A stretch of 64,000 nucleotides of DNA from Escherichia phage ALITA, in the sequence record PP359570. One strand, 5' to 3'. Below, piece by piece: positions 3,066 through 37,093 of this stretch. A program made the position numbers and the translations under genes. The notes beneath the pieces are model-generated. The model was given only the letters and a program-made list of their open reading frames with translations, was not told the origin of the DNA and searched no databases. Positions within the stretch are counted from its first letter, which is position 1; the number at the start of each line of letters is the position of its first letter.

Positions 3066-3915
3066 AATAATCCCCTTTAACATTAGGTTTGTTGATAATG
3101 TTGCTTTCAAAAAATTGACGTAGGAAATCAAAGTTCTCTTTGTATTTTTCAATGTTATTGTAACCTTCTGCAAGGCAACCAAAGAACAGTTGTTCTACAT
3201 AATACAAAGGAAGTTGTGAAAGTGCAATTTTAAAATCAACTTCGCTTTGACTCATTAGATACTTAATAGGACGAACCAAACATTTAGCATCAGCTTCTTG
3301 CTTAATCATTTTAATAAAAGCTGCCAGATTATTGATATAGTTGAAGTTAAGTGCAGCTTCGGTGTTGGCTTCTGTACCTTCATACTTTGCAAAGTACAGG
3401 AAAAACGTATCGTTTTCAACACCTTCTTTGTCTAAAATTTCAATAAGTTTTTCTTCGTGTGTTCCTGTAATATTAACATCATCAATGAAAATCAGAGTTT
3501 TATTACCCCAGAAATCACGATTGATAGAGAAAGTGTCACCATCGATCAAAGCCTTACGATCTTCTTTGCTAAGAAATCCATAATCATTGATATAGCTCAC
3601 TTTACGATGAACGATATCCCACTCCACTGGTTTACCACCTTTGATAGAGATTAGGTAGTTGAGGTGATCTACAAAATGTTCAGATAACACTGTAGCTGCA
3701 TTTTTCACATAGTTATATGGAGATGGAATAACAACAAAACTTTCATTTACCAGTCGTTCTTCATACTTAGAAAAGAAACTTTCAGCCAGAATGCGCCCCA
3801 TTCTTTTTGCTGCCTGGTTACTACCAAACTTTAGTTTGGAATAATCTGCAATGTTAAATTTTGCTTCCTTCAGGTTAGTAAAAGTATTAGCAAAATGTTG
3901 AATTTGATTACGCAT
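3058..3915 (-). CDS. phosphoribosyltransferase (type I PRTase)-like protein
   Basis: KTLIFIDDVNITGTHEE matches the PRPP-binding loop (hydrophobic x4-DD-x-TG-T); stop abuts the macro-domain gene start. Confidence 0.45.
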   Translation of the reverse strand: MRNQIQHFANTFTNLKEAKFNIADYSKLKFGSNQAAKRMGRILAESFFSKYEERLVNESFVVIPSPYNYVKNAATVLSEHFVDHLNYLISIKGGKPVEWDIVHRKVSYINDYGFLSKEDRKALIDGDTFSINRDFWGNKTLIFIDDVNITGTHEEKLIEILDKEGVENDTFFLYFAKYEGTEANTEAALNFNYINNLAAFIKMIKQEADAKCLVRPIKYLMSQSEVDFKIALSQLPLYYVEQLFFGCLAEGYNNIEKYKENFDFLRQFFESNIINKPNVKGDYYV

Positions 3916-4564
3916 TAATAAGTTCCTCTTTTTTAAGTTTAGCCAACAAGTCTTCTGGATTAATAATATGACAGAACTTCATCCCTATGTCAACAGCTTT
4001 TCCATCATAAATCAAACTATCTCCAACGTGTAAAATCTCTTCTGGTGCGAGATCAAACGTCACCATTTCATCAAAAGAGAGTTTAAAAAACCTAGGATCT
4101 GGTTTACACAAGCAAAACTCGTCAGAAAAATGCATAAAGTCAAATGGTAATTTTGTTAAGCCAGAATATACAGCTAAGAAACTACCTGGTACAAAATTAG
4201 TATTGCTCTTAATACTCAAAGAGTAGGTTGAACTTAGCTCTTCCAACTTCTTGCAAAGTTCAGGATTCAATGTTGGAGGATGTTTTATAAACATTGCCAA
4301 ACAATCTCTTTTTAACCCATCCACTTTATCAAGATCAATGTTCAAACGAGTAGAAAGTGTTACCCAAGCATCCTTAGACGTTCCACAAATGCCTTTTTCT
4401 GCTTTTAAATCCAAGAAAGTTTTTACCTCTTTGTATACGGTAGCTGCTTCTGCCTCAGAGCAAGAGGCATACTCGGCAATAACCTTGTTGCGCTCTTCTG
4501 CATACAAAGGGTTAGCAGTAATAAGAGTATTCCATACATCAAAAGAAATATGCTTAACAGTCAT
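3908..4564 (-). CDS. HAD-superfamily hydrolase/phosphatase-like protein
   Basis: Start at MTVKH (ATG about 4562-4564, GGAGG RBS); HAD motif I-like ISFDVWNTL and motif IV-like HVGDSLIYDG; overlaps PRTase-like gene start. Confidence 0.55.
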   Translation of the reverse strand: MTVKHISFDVWNTLITANPLYAEERNKVIAEYASCSEAEAATVYKEVKTFLDLKAEKGICGTSKDAWVTLSTRLNIDLDKVDGLKRDCLAMFIKHPPTLNPELCKKLEELSSTYSLSIKSNTNFVPGSFLAVYSGLTKLPFDFMHFSDEFCLCKPDPRFFKLSFDEMVTFDLAPEEILHVGDSLIYDGKAVDIGMKFCHIINPEDLLAKLKKEELINA

Positions 4565-4733: not shown

Positions 4734-4925
4734 TTAGAATGGTAATCTTTGTATGTCACTTATCCCCACACCAAGAAGTCTAGCAATATCCTTATCTAAA
4801 AGCAACTCTTTTTGTTCTAAAATGTTAATCAGATCTCCTAATACTTCTTTAATGTCACGATCATTTTTAGCAACGTGACCACCTGCTGTATCAACTTTAT
4901 CTTTAAAAACAAAGTAATGATCCAT
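4734..4925 (-). CDS. hypothetical protein
   Basis: Track ORF 4734..4937; start moved to MDHYF which has a GGAGGG RBS. Confidence 0.4.
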   Translation of the reverse strand: MDHYFVFKDKVDTAGGHVAKNDRDIKEVLGDLINILEQKELLLDKDIARLLGVGISDIQRLPF

Positions 4926-4942
4926 AATACCCTCCATATAAA

Positions 4943-9459: not shown

Positions 9460-9476
9460 TATGTTCTCCTTCTAAA

Positions 9477-9911
9477 TTAGTTTAAAATTTCTTTTGCAAT
9501 GGTAGAAGCAAGTTTTCCATCATATTGATTCGGATACTCTGCTTTAAGGTGTTTCATCATATCTGGCATTTTCTTGCCTGTCAAGGCAAATTCTTCAGCA
9601 ATAGCTCGAAGATCATCTTCAGATAGCATTTCTGGCAAATATTTTTCCAGAGTGGTGATATCACGCATAGCTCGCTCACACTTGCTAATGGAGGCATTAA
9701 CTTTCTTAAGCGAGTCTAGTTCCTCTTTAGCGTGTGCAATACCAATCTTAACAATGTTAATCATAATATCGTCTTCTGATTTGTTTAGATTTGCCTTTTG
9801 AGTACGAGCAAGGTCAAACTCACCAATAATATTAGTTAACAAAGCAAAAGCACCTTTATCGGTTGTACGTGCTAAGATACGATCTGCTTTCATTTGTGTC
9901 ACAATAGACAT
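9477..9911 (-). CDS. GatB/YqeY-domain protein
   Basis: 144 aa, all-helical; C-terminal ...DGKLASTIAKEIL resembles the GatB/YqeY C-terminal signature. Confidence 0.5.
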   Translation of the reverse strand: MSIVTQMKADRILARTTDKGAFALLTNIIGEFDLARTQKANLNKSEDDIMINIVKIGIAHAKEELDSLKKVNASISKCERAMRDITTLEKYLPEMLSEDDLRAIAEEFALTGKKMPDMMKHLKAEYPNQYDGKLASTIAKEILN

Positions 9912-22328: not shown

Positions 22329-23735
22329 ATGCCAGCACCAAAATCATGGGAACAATATAAAGAAGAATTAACACCCCTTGCTAAAAATCACAACATTCAG
22401 ATTCTGGGTTATATTGGTGAATGGAAAGGGAGCAAGACTAAACTTAAGCTATCTTGCTCTGATCATGGGGAGTGGGAAAGTACCATAATCAATAGCTTTA
22501 AAACTAAAGGCGGTAAATGTTGCCCCGATTGCAATGGTCGTAGAAAAGTAACAGAAGAAAAGGAATGTATTTCCCTTGTTGATGTTGCTAAAGAAAGAGG
22601 GTTTACTTTTATAGGTCTTGCCGAAGAGTGGCGAGGTGTGCTAACAAAAATCCGCATAGTTTGCCCTAAACATGGAGAGTGGAACACCACGACCATTAGT
22701 GGTTTTAGGAAGGGACGTGGTTGTCCGGCATGTGCAAGTAATAAGCCGTTAACATGGGAAACAGAATTACCGATCTTGGAAGAGATAGCACAGAAGAAGG
22801 GGTATCAGGTGTTAGGGTACGTGGGAGAATGGAAAGGGATTGATACAAAACTTGATTTGTTGTGTCACTGTGGTAACAGATGGGATACTACAAGTATTAA
22901 CAGTTTTAAACATGATCATGGTTGTCCTTTATGTGGGTATGAGAATACAAGGAAGGCACAAACAATACCCGACGATCAACATATTGCAGATTTCTTTTCT
23001 ACAGGGAAATTTAAGGAAGGCACTATCTTTACCAATACAGGGAAACGTAGTTGTAGTAAAAACAAGGACATTATCTGGATGATCGAATGTCCTGTTTGCT
23101 CTCATGATGAGTATGTGCAAGCAGGTGTATGTGATGGTAAGTTTTATATGACACGTAGCGATCTTAAGGCTGGACACTTGCCCTGCCGCTGTGCAACTAA
23201 CTCTCATTATACAGAAAATCAGATTACCTACAGGGTAAAAAAGGAAGTAGAAGGGAGAGGGTATGTCTGGGTAGGTTGGATCGGTAAACCGTCTATAAGA
23301 CTGGGTAATTTTAAATATCTTTGTCTTGTTCATGGGGAACAAATTGGTAGTGCTTATCGCTTACTATATCAGGATAATGGTTGTCCACAATGTGCAGGTC
23401 ATAGTCAGCAGCAATTGTATGTTAATGTTGTTAAAGATAATGGTATTATAGTTGCTCTTAAGTTTGGTATATCTAAAGATAGTGCTAGGAGATTAAACAT
23501 TCAAAATAGGCGTAATATGTTTTTTATGGAGCGTATTTGTTTATATGATTTTAGTACAGTGAAGCAGTGTAAGGCTGCTGAAAGAGCTATAAAGAAAAAA
23601 TTAAAAACTGGTATCTTAACAGCAAGAGAGTTGAAAGATGGTTATACAGAAACAGTAAGTGTTTCTGATTTGGAAAATCTTCAAAAAATTATTACACAAT
23701 ATGGTGGCAAATTAGTATACAGTAAGGAGGTGTAA
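22329..23735 (+). CDS. tandem zinc-ribbon repeat protein with C-terminal GIY-YIG-like (T5orf172-type) domain
   Basis: About 5 repeats of GY.GEWKG..TKL...C..HGEW.TT.I..FK...GCP.C; C-terminal LYVNVV...ALKFGIS...RR...E resembles GIY / YIG / Arg / Glu arrangement. Confidence 0.45.
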   Translation: MPAPKSWEQYKEELTPLAKNHNIQILGYIGEWKGSKTKLKLSCSDHGEWESTIINSFKTKGGKCCPDCNGRRKVTEEKECISLVDVAKERGFTFIGLAEEWRGVLTKIRIVCPKHGEWNTTTISGFRKGRGCPACASNKPLTWETELPILEEIAQKKGYQVLGYVGEWKGIDTKLDLLCHCGNRWDTTSINSFKHDHGCPLCGYENTRKAQTIPDDQHIADFFSTGKFKEGTIFTNTGKRSCSKNKDIIWMIECPVCSHDEYVQAGVCDGKFYMTRSDLKAGHLPCRCATNSHYTENQITYRVKKEVEGRGYVWVGWIGKPSIRLGNFKYLCLVHGEQIGSAYRLLYQDNGCPQCAGHSQQQLYVNVVKDNGIIVALKFGISKDSARRLNIQNRRNMFFMERICLYDFSTVKQCKAAERAIKKKLKTGILTARELKDGYTETVSVSDLENLQKIITQYGGKLVYSKEV

Positions 23736-24287
23736 ATGCGGATTACTGATAAGTATGTGTTCTTCTTCTCGGCAAAAGATGAATTTAGCAACTGGTATCT
23801 ATCATCTTTTATTGAACCTTTAGCTCCCAAGTATAATAATTCTATTACAAGTTCTGTTGAATTTACTTGTGTGGAACAATATATGATGTGGAGAAAAGCA
23901 TGTTTGTTTTATGATTACAGTATTGCATCTTCTATTTTAACCGGAGATCTAAGATATACAGGAGAAAAAGAACAAGCATATTATAAACGACTAGGCAGAT
24001 TAGTTAAAGATTATGATGAAGATACCTGGGCTTCTTTACGGGAGAAGATTGTCAAGCGTGGTTTGTATCTTAAATACACACAAAATGAAGATCTCAAAAA
24101 TAAACTTATCGCTTACGCAGATAAGGAGTTCGTAGAGGCAAGCCCCTATGATTCTATTTATGGTATCAAAATGGGGATGTGGGATCGGGACGTGGAAAAT
24201 AAGGATTGTTGGAAAGGGCAAAATCTTTTAGGAAAATGGCATACAGACCTTGCTGTTTATCTAAAATCACAATCTGATATTTCCTGA
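23736..24287 (+). CDS. NADAR (YbiA/DUF1768-like) domain protein
   Basis: FFFS..DEFSNWY, EQYMMWRKA, LGRLV, KFVEASPYDSIYGIKMG match conserved NADAR blocks. Confidence 0.55.
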   Translation: MRITDKYVFFFSAKDEFSNWYLSSFIEPLAPKYNNSITSSVEFTCVEQYMMWRKACLFYDYSIASSILTGDLRYTGEKEQAYYKRLGRLVKDYDEDTWASLREKIVKRGLYLKYTQNEDLKNKLIAYADKEFVEASPYDSIYGIKMGMWDRDVENKDCWKGQNLLGKWHTDLAVYLKSQSDIS

Positions 24288-24504
24288 TATTTTGAAAATT
24301 TTTATTTTTATAAAAAGGGGTGTGGGTTTCATGTACGGAAATCCACCCTCTGAATAATATATCCAGAGTAAGTAGTATTCTGTACTCTGTTAATAAAGTA
24401 TTTAATTTGTTTGTTGGATTATGGTGGCTGATCTTTAAAAGGCATACTATCTCTTAACTACTACTTATAACAAAACAGTAAAATCCTTTTTATAAAAGTA
24501 CAAA

Positions 24505-24715
24505 ATTATTTAAAGTTTTTACAGATTTTCGGGTACAAATTTTGAAAATGAAAAGTTCAAGTTTGGTCAAAATTATTTAAAGTTTTTGTACGTATTTCTG
24601 TCCAGATTTTGAAAATGAAAACTTCAATTTTTTAAAAATTCCCCAGTTTATTTAAAGTTTTTTTGCCTTTTTCCGTAGAAAAATCAAAAATGAAAAGTTC
24701 AATTTCGTGTTTTTA
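24505..24715. repeat. three ~70-bp imperfect direct repeats (iteron-like)
   Basis: Each unit contains TATTTAAAGTTTTT ... TTGAAAATGAAAA(G/C)TTCAA; non-coding, AT-rich. Confidence 0.6.
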
Positions 24716-24723
24716 TAGGTGTG

Positions 24724-24840
24724 TTAATGAGAATCATTTTCGTTTGTAAATGAGAATCATTATCATTTAACTATGTAAGTGATAATCATTCTCAGTAAGA
24801 GAATGAGAATCATTAGCAAATGAGAATTTTTCTCATTTAC
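24724..24840. promoter_or_regulatory. cluster of five Fur-box-like palindromic sites (AATGAGAATCATT family)
   Basis: AATGAGAATCATT x3, GTGATAATCATTCTC, and perfect palindrome AAATGAGAA-TTT-TTCTCATTT; core matches part of the GATAATGATAATCATTATC consensus. Confidence 0.45.
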
Positions 24841-25098
24841 AGAATAACGCGCAGGGGCGGTGTTTGTCTCGCGCTCCCGTGTCCCCTCGCCATACAATAA
24901 GAATAGCATAACCAATAACAAAAGCAAGCGATTATTTTTATCTTTACATTTCTTTACAAATTTATTTTAGACGAGCTACCGGCGATCAACCTTCCAACCA
25001 GTGCCCCCTGGTATGTTAGCCCCGCCTTTACGCCGTGGGGTGGCGTTTCCTCTTCTGTATGTAAAACAGTATAAGCCCGATCCCTGGGCTTGTCAAGA

Positions 25099-25365
25099 TT
25101 ATTTTTTGTTTTCTTGCCAGGATAGGACACCTAACCAAAAATACATGTCGCCCCGCGCCCCTGGTGGGATCTTGCTTTCCCCGCCGCCACTGCAAGCCCA
25201 TAAATAACCATCAGCGAACGGATCAAAGTGATCTATCTCTTCCACCTTATGATCGCCCAGGTTGAGAACGGTTTCAACCTTTAAGCCCGTTGCGCTTGCT
25301 ACCTGGTGCACCGTGCCGCCTTGCCAGCCCAGTGAGTGCATGAGATGTAAAGAAGTATTTGTCAT
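25099..25365 (-). CDS. hypothetical protein in GC-rich segment (uncertain)
   Basis: 88-aa ORF with GC-rich, enteric-like codon usage unlike flanking phage DNA; weak RBS; 3' end overlaps a consensus TTGACA-17-TATACT promoter on the same strand. Confidence 0.25.
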   Translation of the reverse strand: MTNTSLHLMHSLGWQGGTVHQVASATGLKVETVLNLGDHKVEEIDHFDPFADGYLWACSGGGESKIPPGARGDMYFWLGVLSWQENKK

Positions 25366-25737
25366 GGTATCGCCCTTTCTTTGTTGTGCGCCCTGGTTGG
25401 CGCGGTAGAAAGATGATAGCCGTTTCCTTCATATATAGCAAGCAAAAAAGAAATGAAAAAAAGATTAAAAAATGGTTGACGTTCCTCACCTGGTAGCGTA
25501 GTATTCATCTTGTCGAGGGGGGCAAGACACAACGACAATAAACAATAGGCGGGTGCAATGCAAGACGGGCAAAGGTGAGGATCTCCACAATCCACCGTCA
25601 CAATAACATTACTTATAAAAGGTTGATAACGATGATCAAGAAAGAAAATAGCTTGACGGTTGGAACGATTAACGCTATCATTCTTGCCGTTCCATTTTGG
25701 ATTGTAGTTGCGGTTATTATTTTCTAAAAAAATATTC

Positions 25738-35689: not shown

Positions 35690-35960
35690 ATAAGTTATCT
35701 AACTAAATTAAAACTAATTATCTCACTTTTATTTATAACTTACTGTTACTATCTCATTGATAACCTTATATTAAACAACAATAACTAATATAAATCATTA
35801 CTAAGCTAAATATAATCTATCTAACCCTTAAAACTACAATTATAATCTATCTAATTGTTGCACAAAGTAACTATTAAATTGTTAGTAACATTACTAAATA
35901 ATTCACATCCTATCTATTTATGATCTAATCTTTACCTTTCTATCTATTACCTAAATAACC
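35690..35960. repeat. G-depleted tract with reiterated ATCTA / TATCTA motifs
   Basis: About 270 bp with only ~5% G on the plus strand and 10 or more ATCTA-type repeats; non-coding. Confidence 0.5.
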
Positions 35961-36517
35961 ATTTCATACAGTAATTATTCCATATGGTAATCATTTCATA
36001 CAATAATTATAACAAGAAATATAATTCGCAAGCGTATCATTAGCAGCCTATGCCGGACACATAGGCGGCTAATAATAACGCAACTACACACCCCACATAA
36101 TAACCATCAACGATGGTTATTATTTGTGTTTATGTAGCTTGCAACAATTGCAAGCGCAACAATATACATGGTATATTGTATTCCCTTACATTGTTGCGGT
36201 GCGTTATTATTAGCTAATGTTTAGAACATTGGCTATAATATAAGCTGCATATAATAAACTATGCAATAATAAACATGGTGAATAATGACACCGATGATCA
36301 TAATGCGCCACCCTCCAGGGGGCGCTATGTAAACACAAAGAAATCTTTCTTGTCAAGAAAATATTGCCACTATTGCGCAAAATTATTTTTATCTGAATAG
36401 ATGATTTTTCATACTATTGCCCCTATAACATACCTCATTTGTTGAGCCTACTTTCTTAAAAGCGCAATAAATCAGAATTATCTTGATTTTTAGGGCGTTT
36501 TATAGTACAGAAAGTAT

Positions 36518-36536
36518 GCAAATGATAATCATTATC
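36518..36536. promoter_or_regulatory. near-consensus Fur-box-like 19-mer
   Basis: GCAAATGATAATCATTATC matches the consensus GATAATGATAATCATTATC at 17 of 19 positions (16 consecutive). Confidence 0.5.
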
Positions 36537-36702
36537 AGCTATCTTCCACGGGTAGCACTATTTCACGCCAGATCATTTCATTTGGCAAGGTGTATATAGA
36601 TGTTTAGACTTGCCAAGCCATTGATTTACTTAGAATTTATCTGTTTTGTTGTGAGTAATACCTTTCTTACTCAGAAAATAATCAAAAGTCTTATAAGTCA
36701 TT

Positions 36703-36738
36703 GAATGATAATACAAATGATAATTATTCTCATTGATA
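36703..36738. promoter_or_regulatory. tandem degenerate Fur-box-like sites
   Basis: GAATGATAATACAAATGATAATTATTCTCATTGATA. Confidence 0.35.
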
Positions 36739-37093
36739 TTTGAGGGGGACGGTCGGCAGAAATCGGGGGGCGCTGAAAATCGCGTTAAGCACCTCTCGCA
36801 AGCGAGCAGTATTTTGCGGCAAGTTATTGATATTATTGACTTTACGCTTATGAAAAGGGGGTGTGTCGAAATAAATCGGGTATACCGGAAAATTTTTGTG
36901 GCATAGATATTTATTTGTCTATATTATGTACAAAGGGGTGTATTAAAAATAATAGGTATATATAGAATAATTGATAGGGAAATCCTATACTAATCCCTCC
37001 ATTAATGATGTTTCTATGTTGCTGTTATTGTAATAGATGAAAAGACGCTGTATGATGTGTGGCATGAAACGTAAACTTATAAAGGAGTCTGAT

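Follow-up and report, generated by a model that had tools for sequence, protein, structure and literature searches.

The locus and its genomic setting

Three direct repeats occupy positions 24501-24708 of a 64,000-nucleotide stretch of Escherichia phage ALITA (record PP359570), the whole of which was analysed and is referred to below as the window. Successive units are offset by 67 and 75 bp, and the array forms part of a conserved non-coding module of 1.5 kb. Its neighbours comprise genes for an AAA+ ATPase, a CapR/T5orf172 endonuclease and a NADAR protein, together with an 88-aa ORF. The latter (25099-25365, minus strand; phi92 gp224, phrog_19316) is unusually GC-rich, carries a helix-turn-helix-like motif (GGTVHQVASATGLKVETVLNL) and represents the sole protein gene of the module. 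On its left the module is bordered by a very stable hairpin after the NADAR gene (24316-24351, plus strand; -20.1 kcal/mol, z -4.1), which has no U-run on the plus strand; its minus-strand version is weaker (-10.6) and has a run of five U after it. A leftward terminator at 24310-24348 was considered and set aside as ambiguous, the hairpin being much stronger on the plus strand. The gene at 22329-23735, with CapR repeats and a T5orf172 (GIY-YIG-like) domain, is annotated at 1173 nt in phage inny, 1398 in alia, 978 in EmilieFrey and 990 in BME3, and probably encodes a mobile homing endonuclease.

A search with the region 23700-25500 gave matches in 151 phage records, with Escherichia phage PD114 as the best (98%) and phi92 among them. 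Judged from sequence likeness, the window is that of a Justusliebigvirus (phi92-like, Stephanstirmvirinae), a lytic myophage of about 147 kb. Direct terminal repeats of 342 bp have been described for BME3 (PMC12210895), and a 328-bp terminal repeat has been reported for one Phapecoctavirus (PMC6563267). The repeat annotated in BME3, whose record is not cleanly bounded by it, maps to 36518-36859, so that a physical genome end probably lies within the window. This places the array, and the cluster of Fur-box-like sites to its right, some 11.7-12.1 kb (about 8% of the genome) from an end, with the array at the inner border of a terminal block of tiny plus-strand genes. Further strong Fur-box-like sites were noted at 35588-35661, 36521-36536 and 36716-36734, near or inside the terminal repeat, and the terminal 12-kb segment is thus flanked by such sites on both sides.

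Anatomy of the repeat array

Each unit is built of a Box A (TTATTTAAAGTTTTT), a free spacer of about 19 bp and a Box B (about TTTTGAAAATGAAAAGTTCAA). Unit 1 (24501-24567) contains Box A1 at 24506-24520, a spacer at 24521-24538 and Box B1 at 24539-24564 (ATTTTGAAAATGAAAAGTTCAAGTTT). Unit 2 (24568-24642) has Box A2 at 24573-24587 and, beyond its spacer, Box B2 at 24606-24631, and is followed by a conserved linker, TTTTTTAAAAATTCCCCAG, at 24628-24646. Unit 3 (24643-24708) carries Box A3 at 24648-24662 and Box B3 at 24681-24706 (AAATCAAAAATGAAAAGTTCAATTTC), separated by a spacer that holds a small TTTTTC/GAAAAA hairpin. Box A is exact in all three units, starting at 24506, 24573 and 24648, and has no other copy in the 64 kb. 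The Box B core TGAAAATGAAAAGTTCAA is found at 24543, 24610 and 24685 with 0, 1 and 2 mismatches, respectively, and nowhere else in the window; three such matches were reached in none of 100 shuffles. The distance from Box A to Box B is 34 bp in all three units, and 38 of the 56 positions from Box A onward are identical among them.

The repeats are real. The initial annotation had proposed three tandem imperfect repeats of about 70 bp in a non-coding, AT-rich stretch, and independent procedures agree with that description. Tandem Repeats Finder delimited 24501-24631 with a period of 67 and 83% matches, and a separate repeat search returned three segments of 77 nt at 24487, 24554 and 24629 with 71% ungapped identity; given offsets of 67 and 75 bp, the approximate period is a fair one. 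Identity at a lag of 67 amounts to 49 of 60 positions, compared with 31.6 ± 1.5 (maximum 39) in 1000 dinucleotide shuffles, so the units align far better than random AT-rich sequence and their similarity is far above what AT-rich composition yields by chance. The array has a G+C content of 23% versus 37% for the whole window, and its longest ORFs, of 26-28 aa, are not conserved; small ORFs were accordingly rejected as an explanation, none exceeding 28 aa. Its right edge stops about 12 bp short of the first Fur-like box, which also bears out its placement directly left of the palindrome cluster.

The description of Box B had to be amended in two respects. The motif TTGAAAATGAAAA(G/C)TTCAA had been ascribed to every unit and is present in units 1 and 2, while unit 3 reads TCAAAAATGAAAAGTTCAA; likewise, the third copy opens with TCAAAAATG and not with TTGAAAATG. 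The remainder of that description is correct.

Uniqueness and constraint within the genus

Both boxes are unique to this locus. In phage PD211 (149.5 kb, 97% identical) they are confined to the array, and an nhmmer profile built from 16 units detected three copies only (E about 1e-10) in that genome and in the window, every further hit having an E value above 1. In these two sequences, the search for the unit elsewhere that had been suggested for this locus leads back to the array alone. Confinement to one locus marks the motif as a single-site cis element and not as a general promoter or terminator. The records of phages inny and alia carry a bare 'repeat_region' corresponding to 24503-24628, with no stated function, and our literature search found no functional study or description of the array. 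Scans of IMG/VR with two copies of Box A or with the ATPase protein returned close relatives and chance matches only.

The array is also strongly constrained. Among seven distinct Justusliebigvirus sequences, 4 of 208 array columns are variable, as against 25 of 213 in the upstream flank and 14 of 137 in the Fur cluster, and polymorphism in the array lies six-fold below that of its flanks within the genus. All four array polymorphisms fall in the spacers between Box A and Box B, at 24522, 24530 and 24533 in unit 1 and at 24600 in unit 2. The 21 full-length matches among those listed span 572-575 bp each, which means that the repeat copy number is constant among these.

Conservation across genera and subfamilies

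Citrobacter phage Tr1, Klebsiella phage KP2025, phAPEC8, phiWec190 and one IMG/VR contig all carry these three units. An alignment of sixteen units, drawn from six Stephanstirmvirinae, is gapless over its 64 nt and has the consensus TTATTTAAA.TTTTT-N5-TTT-N13-T-N2-AAAA-N2-AAAAT-N-TAAA-N-TT. Across this subfamily the boxes are kept and the spacer is free in sequence and fixed in length. Offsets between units are 67+75, 68+75, 67+76, 66+75 or 67+77 bp. Outside Justusliebigvirus, Box B reads AAAAT(T/C)TAAAGTTT; the TTGAA..TTCAA palindrome first seen in Box B is thus present here and lacking in the related genera, that is, a lineage-specific trait. A core motif, TTTAAAGTTT, occurs in both Box A and Box B of most related genera, which makes the array effectively six direct copies of one motif, recurring at intervals of about 46, 21, 46, 29 and 46 bp. 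In Phapecoctavirus unit 2 has decayed, and three intact units are therefore not essential.

The geometry of the array is conserved in a second subfamily as well. The Vequintavirinae PVP-SE1, Av-05, Mydo, CR3 and KaOmega carry exactly three direct repeats left of their Fur box, each unit running from GGTTCTCGATCG through TTTTCAAAATCGAAAACGTATTT and a T-run/A-run hairpin to GAAAAAATTTTT, with offsets of 75+67, 74+67 or 78+63 bp. This type of array was found in 65 records at constant length and about 73-76% identity. It resembles that of the Stephanstirmvirinae in its position left of the Fur boxes and of a GC-rich module, in the number of units, in a total span of 141-144 bp, the same in both subfamilies, and in a Box-B-like middle box (TTTTCAAAATCGAAAAC versus TTTTGAAAATGAAAAG). 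It differs in that the partner boxes GGTTCTCGATCG and GAAAAAATTTTT replace Box A, in the reversed order of offsets (75 then 67) and in the presence of two GATC sites in each unit, whereas the Stephanstirmvirinae units have none. Altogether, the array geometry is preserved in more than 200 related phages. Unlike the repeats, which change, the Fur boxes adhere to the host consensus, a pattern that would fit a phage-specific binding protein that co-evolves with its sites. The gene to the left differs between groups, being NADAR here and unrelated proteins elsewhere, and the array is accordingly linked to the right-hand module.

These comparisons bear on two ways of seeing the repeats, as a packaging (pac-type) site for the terminase or as a relic devoid of function, which together we regard as very unlikely. 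Some pac sites, such as those of P1 and SPP1, are built of repeated boxes, and the array is likewise unique in the genome and composed of such boxes, with two GATC sites per unit in the Vequintavirinae. Its position speaks against packaging, for some 12 kb separate it from the terminal repeat and it belongs to the early region, not beside the terminase genes; GATC, moreover, is missing from the units of the Stephanstirmvirinae. The relic reading is ruled out by a polymorphism six-fold below that of the flanks and by a geometry maintained in more than 200 genomes.

The surrounding module of predicted regulatory sites

To the right of the array, a Fur-box cluster with at least five overlapping sites (AATGAGAATCATT...; 10 overlapping matches against 1.3 expected) extends over 24720-24845. 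Fur-box-like matches number 17 in the window, against 1.3 expected. The right end of the cluster includes the -10 element (CAGAAT, 24840-24845) of a possible Fur-controlled promoter on the plus strand, which in the Vequintavirinae takes the form TTGAAT-18-(C/T)AGAAT and has a weaker -35 here. It is followed by GC-rich block 1 (24849-24891), an inverted repeat that folds no better than shuffled sequences and would be the 5' leader of two transcripts, one from the putative Fur-controlled promoter (plus strand) and one from a predicted sigma-70-like promoter on the minus strand, P2 (24900-24927, TTGCTT-16-TATTCT), which points towards the Fur boxes and the array. An equivalent of P2 was recognised in 11 of the 11 phages examined, in Tr1 and Av-05 by eye, with a -10 of TAATAT.

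Next to P2 lies a perfect match, on the minus strand, to GTAAA-N5-GTAAA (24943-24957), which we take to be the CpxR consensus and which has no second copy in the window. Its half-sites are invariant and its N5 is variable in 11 phages from the two subfamilies. The box is upstream of the -35 of P2, from which it is separated by 5 nt in most phages and by 14-15 nt, about one helical turn more, in the present phage and its close relatives. GC-rich block 2 (24976-25062, minus strand) is likely the 5' part of a non-coding RNA read leftward from P1 (25068-25096, minus strand), a predicted near-consensus sigma-70 promoter (TTGACA-17-TATACT, 11 of 12 matches) that is conserved in 11 phages and sits at the right edge of the GC-rich region. 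P1, P2, the putative Fur-controlled promoter and the Fur and CpxR-like sites are all predicted from sequence.

Our comparison found the GC-rich sequence 24840-25110 in 236 phage records, Vequintavirinae included, at identities of 83-99% (83-88% across subfamilies). Indels between relatives are not multiples of three, which marks the GC-rich blocks as non-coding. The RNAalifold structure of this part is weak (-13.7 kcal/mol, no net covariation term), its G-U pairs favour the minus strand, and Rfam holds no family for 24846-25096, an interval that is probably a conserved non-coding RNA. A side observation concerns the 'PHIRE promoters' of phAPEC8 (GTAGGGCGGCAATGGTGCCG) at 3382-3401, 4021-4040 and 4910-4929, which sit a short way past sigma-70 -10 elements and resemble stem-loops at the 5' ends of early transcripts rather than promoters.

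Promoter, RNA and mimicry readings of the array

Several readings of the array itself were tried and rejected. A sigma-70 promoter scan of 24500-24715 gave no site, nor did reading by eye on both strands; tandem sigma-70 promoters were discarded in that the conserved boxes offer no -10 hexamer with A2 and T6 paired with a -35. Sigma-28 promoters were suggested by TAAAGTTT, which equals a -35 element, yet no -10 resembling GCCGATAA follows it. The minus strand shows the T4-like late promoter sequence CTTTAAATAA, but the motif that bears it is restricted to the array locus and hence does not represent a promoter class. No consistent A-tract phasing with a period of 10-11 bp emerged across phages. 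Folding of units 1 and 2 on either strand is no better than that of shuffles (z +0.3 to +0.8), and a hairpin or cruciform between Box A and Box B was dismissed on account of this shuffle-level folding and the lack of covariation or compensatory changes. Neither Rfam nor ARAGORN found anything relevant in the array. A BLAST search of 5,426 E. coli genomes and 72,556 plasmids revealed no sequence similar to it, and mimicry of a host or plasmid sequence was rejected on that ground.

The array could alternatively act at the RNA level, as the body of a leftward non-coding RNA from P2 or P1 whose repeated motif serves as a sponge for an RNA-binding protein or as an antitoxin mimic in the manner of phage pseudo-ToxI, although we consider this unlikely. 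Two conserved promoters do face the array, with no ORF after them, and on the minus strand a weak hairpin with five U lies beyond it, near 24310-24348. Units 1 and 2, as stated, fold at shuffle level and lack compensatory changes, no Rfam family covers them, E. coli genomes and plasmids offer nothing to mimic, and transcripts from P1 may end before the array, at the block-1 hairpin and the UUAUUCU that follows it. Type III antitoxin (ToxI) RNAs consist of tandem repeats of 34-36 nt. ToxI-like repeats are carried by phages of the related genus Certrevirus elsewhere in their genomes, and in the Pectobacterium phage DU_PP_I the pseudo-ToxI locus is about 70 kb from the homologous module. As the array has no Rfam match, no similarity in E. 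coli and no shared fold, and as the pseudo-ToxI of relatives lies elsewhere, ToxI-like repeats were rejected. Records matching a two-copy ToxI query numbered 80 and came from phages of many genera, Klebsiella, Salmonella, Escherichia, Pectobacterium and Vibrio among them, which suggests that pseudo-ToxI sequences are widespread.

A probable recognition array in duplex DNA and a possible replication origin

The initial annotation had offered a replication origin or a multi-site binding platform. A platform in duplex DNA is well supported by conserved boxes, free spacers, gapless spacing from Box A to Box B, occurrence in a single copy and the lack of coding, promoter or single-strand structure; an origin is a plausible candidate. 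The combination of boxes, free spacers of fixed length, single copy, lineage-specific sequence and a geometry kept throughout the subfamilies argues for a higher-order protein-DNA complex. We therefore read the array as a recognition array in duplex DNA that most plausibly marks a replication origin, and assign this reading a probability of roughly one in three (about 0.35). That a protein binds the array, which protein this is and that an origin lies here are all matters that we infer from its sequence and setting.

According to this proposal, several copies of a phage-encoded, sequence-specific DNA-binding protein would assemble on the array into one higher-order complex, which would mark the phage replication origin and open the very AT-rich DNA of the array. 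Leftward transcription from P1 and P2, 190-590 bp to the right, may aid or prime this opening, and the Fur boxes between these promoters and the array could gate it. The origin is favoured because the array is unique and AT-rich, lies near the transcription divergence, has two promoters reading into it and belongs to phages whose relatives possess a T7-type primase-helicase. The primase-helicase in question is T7 gp4-like, and no origin has been mapped in these relatives (PMC3606486). The array lies 5.5 kb from the global minimum of the cumulative GC skew, near the main transcription divergence, and together with its left flank it constitutes the second least stable 300-bp stretch of the genome by nearest-neighbour stability.

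Other observations weigh against an origin at this site. No initiator gene adjoins the array, and those for DNA polymerase and primase-helicase fall outside the 64-kb window. In rV5, GC skew gave transcription-linked switches only and the origin could not be defined; the skew minimum tracks gene orientation and not necessarily replication (PMC3606486). The least stable and most AT-rich stretch of the genome is another one, at 35680-35980 (35.7 kb), in a 1.5-kb non-coding region beside the terminal repeat near the genome end, and is a candidate for an alternative origin. Small tandem repeats of 16 bp (35956-36010) and several inverted repeats occur there. Furthermore, an origin primed from a promoter would need no conserved boxes.

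The array can be compared with known origins of two types. Iteron origins, such as lambda ori (bound by the O protein), P1 oriR and those of plasmids RK2, pSC101 and F, contain iterons of 17-22 bp at intervals of about 21-24 bp. The array shares with them at least three direct copies of one motif, gathered at a single site of the replicon in AT-rich non-coding DNA, and a lineage-specific sequence as expected of a cognate initiator. It differs in its bipartite 64-bp units at offsets of 67 and 75 bp, which are not short repeats in helical phase, in the lack of a cognate initiator gene among the neighbours examined and in the absence of host DnaA and IHF sites from the array. The array thus resembles iteron arrays in kind, with another unit size, build and spacing; the term 'iteron-like' first used for it suits its appearance and not its membership of that class. 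Origins of T7 and T4 combine a promoter with an AT-rich region: the primary origin of T7 has two promoters and an AT-rich region, and T4 oriF and oriG have a promoter and an unwinding element. Similarly, P1 and P2, predicted promoters conserved in 11 phages, read into the very AT-rich array. The T7 and T4 origins need no conserved repeated boxes, whereas here 190-590 bp, with a U-tailed hairpin and the Fur-box cluster, separate promoters and array. Partition and replication sites of another build, namely the plasmid centromere F sopC (12 repeats of 43 bp) and phage P4 crr (two 120-bp repeats holding iterons), also consist of long tandem units that each contain a short protein-binding core; no gene of the ParA/ParB or P4 alpha type was seen among the neighbours examined, and the present phage is lytic.

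Almost as likely as an origin is a regulatory or architectural platform, on which a phage regulator or a nucleoprotein wrap would control adjacent promoters and have no role in replication. Its targets would be the Fur-controlled plus-strand promoter, P2, P1 and the early promoter at 25476, and through them the terminal block of tiny genes (about 10 kb) and the non-coding RNA. The structural evidence for protein binding is identical for the two readings. In every phage examined the array is linked to a promoter-rich module with Fur and CpxR-like sites, being placed upstream of the putative Fur-controlled promoter and downstream of P2, and it shows no features specific to an origin: an exact DnaA box, an IHF or Fis consensus and GATC are all missing from it. 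Unlike ordinary operators, it overlaps no promoter element, the nearest ones being 115-340 bp away, and an exact geometry of 141-144 bp in two subfamilies is unusual for operator arrays. The 88-aa ORF was considered as the repeat-binding protein and rejected, since its motif is identical in Av-05, where the ORF is conserved, despite the other type of repeat there, and thus does not co-vary with the repeats. Several Vequintavirinae lack the ORF or have others in its stead, such as the unrelated small ORFs of PVP-SE1 and Mydo.

A more elaborate version of the origin reading, which we judge improbable, would place the origin of phi92-like and rV5-like phages under the control of two stress regulators of the host. 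A CpxR-activated P2 and a constitutive P1 would transcribe into the array and open or prime the origin, and Fur bound to the intervening boxes would block this transcription or drive an antisense transcript. This would, if true, link phage DNA replication to the iron status of the host and to its envelope stress.

The array offers a well-defined target of about 210 bp, present once and open to mutation, for questions of origin and early control in rV5-like and phi92-like phages, which are widely used as candidates for therapy and biocontrol. Its boxes and spacers are clearly separated, and nature provides a swap of specificity between subfamilies, so that the questions of the origin and of the binding protein are directly testable. 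More broadly, the module suggests that lytic phages may read host regulators of iron and envelope stress at a set position, about 8% of the genome away from its end, and interest in the array would rise if the link to Fur and CpxR proved real.

Comparison with the T5 injection stop region

The closest parallel in genome position is the injection stop region of T5 (Repeat Region 3; 10.1101/866236), also a large conserved untranslated region about 8% from an end, with a Fur-box-like cluster and phage-specific direct repeats distal to it. T5 differs in having pairs of DnaA boxes, nine irregularly spaced 15-bp repeats (TGTGCAAATCCGACA) and terminal repeats of 10 kb; moreover, two-step transfer is known from T5 and hypothetical in phi92-like phages. 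By this analogy, the array and the Fur cluster could border the segment that enters the cell first, transfer being halted or resumed at the array by a virion or early protein, a reading that we hold to be unlikely. The distance of about 8% is counted from an end marked by a BME3-type terminal repeat, everything needed to express the terminal block sits between the array and that end, and the T5 cluster (9468-9640), which is very similar to the present one, coincides with the computed shear point of first-step transfer at 9618 (7.9%). Against the analogy, the other end of the phage genome (36.8-48 kb, genes pointing inward) looks more like a leading end of the T7 type, and the terminal block (25.8-36 kb) contains no large ORF of the size of A1. 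In addition, the T5 repeats differ in sequence and geometry, the likeness of the Fur boxes may reflect convergence on the host consensus, and the BME3 record has no clean boundary at its repeat. The preprint by Davison on the T5 injection stop signal makes no mention of Fur (10.1101/866236). In the T5 sequence (AY587007), the 'direct repeat C' and the palindromes E-I at 9468-9640 read TTTTTAAATGAGAATCATT..., a Fur-box-like sequence beside the nick at 7.9%.
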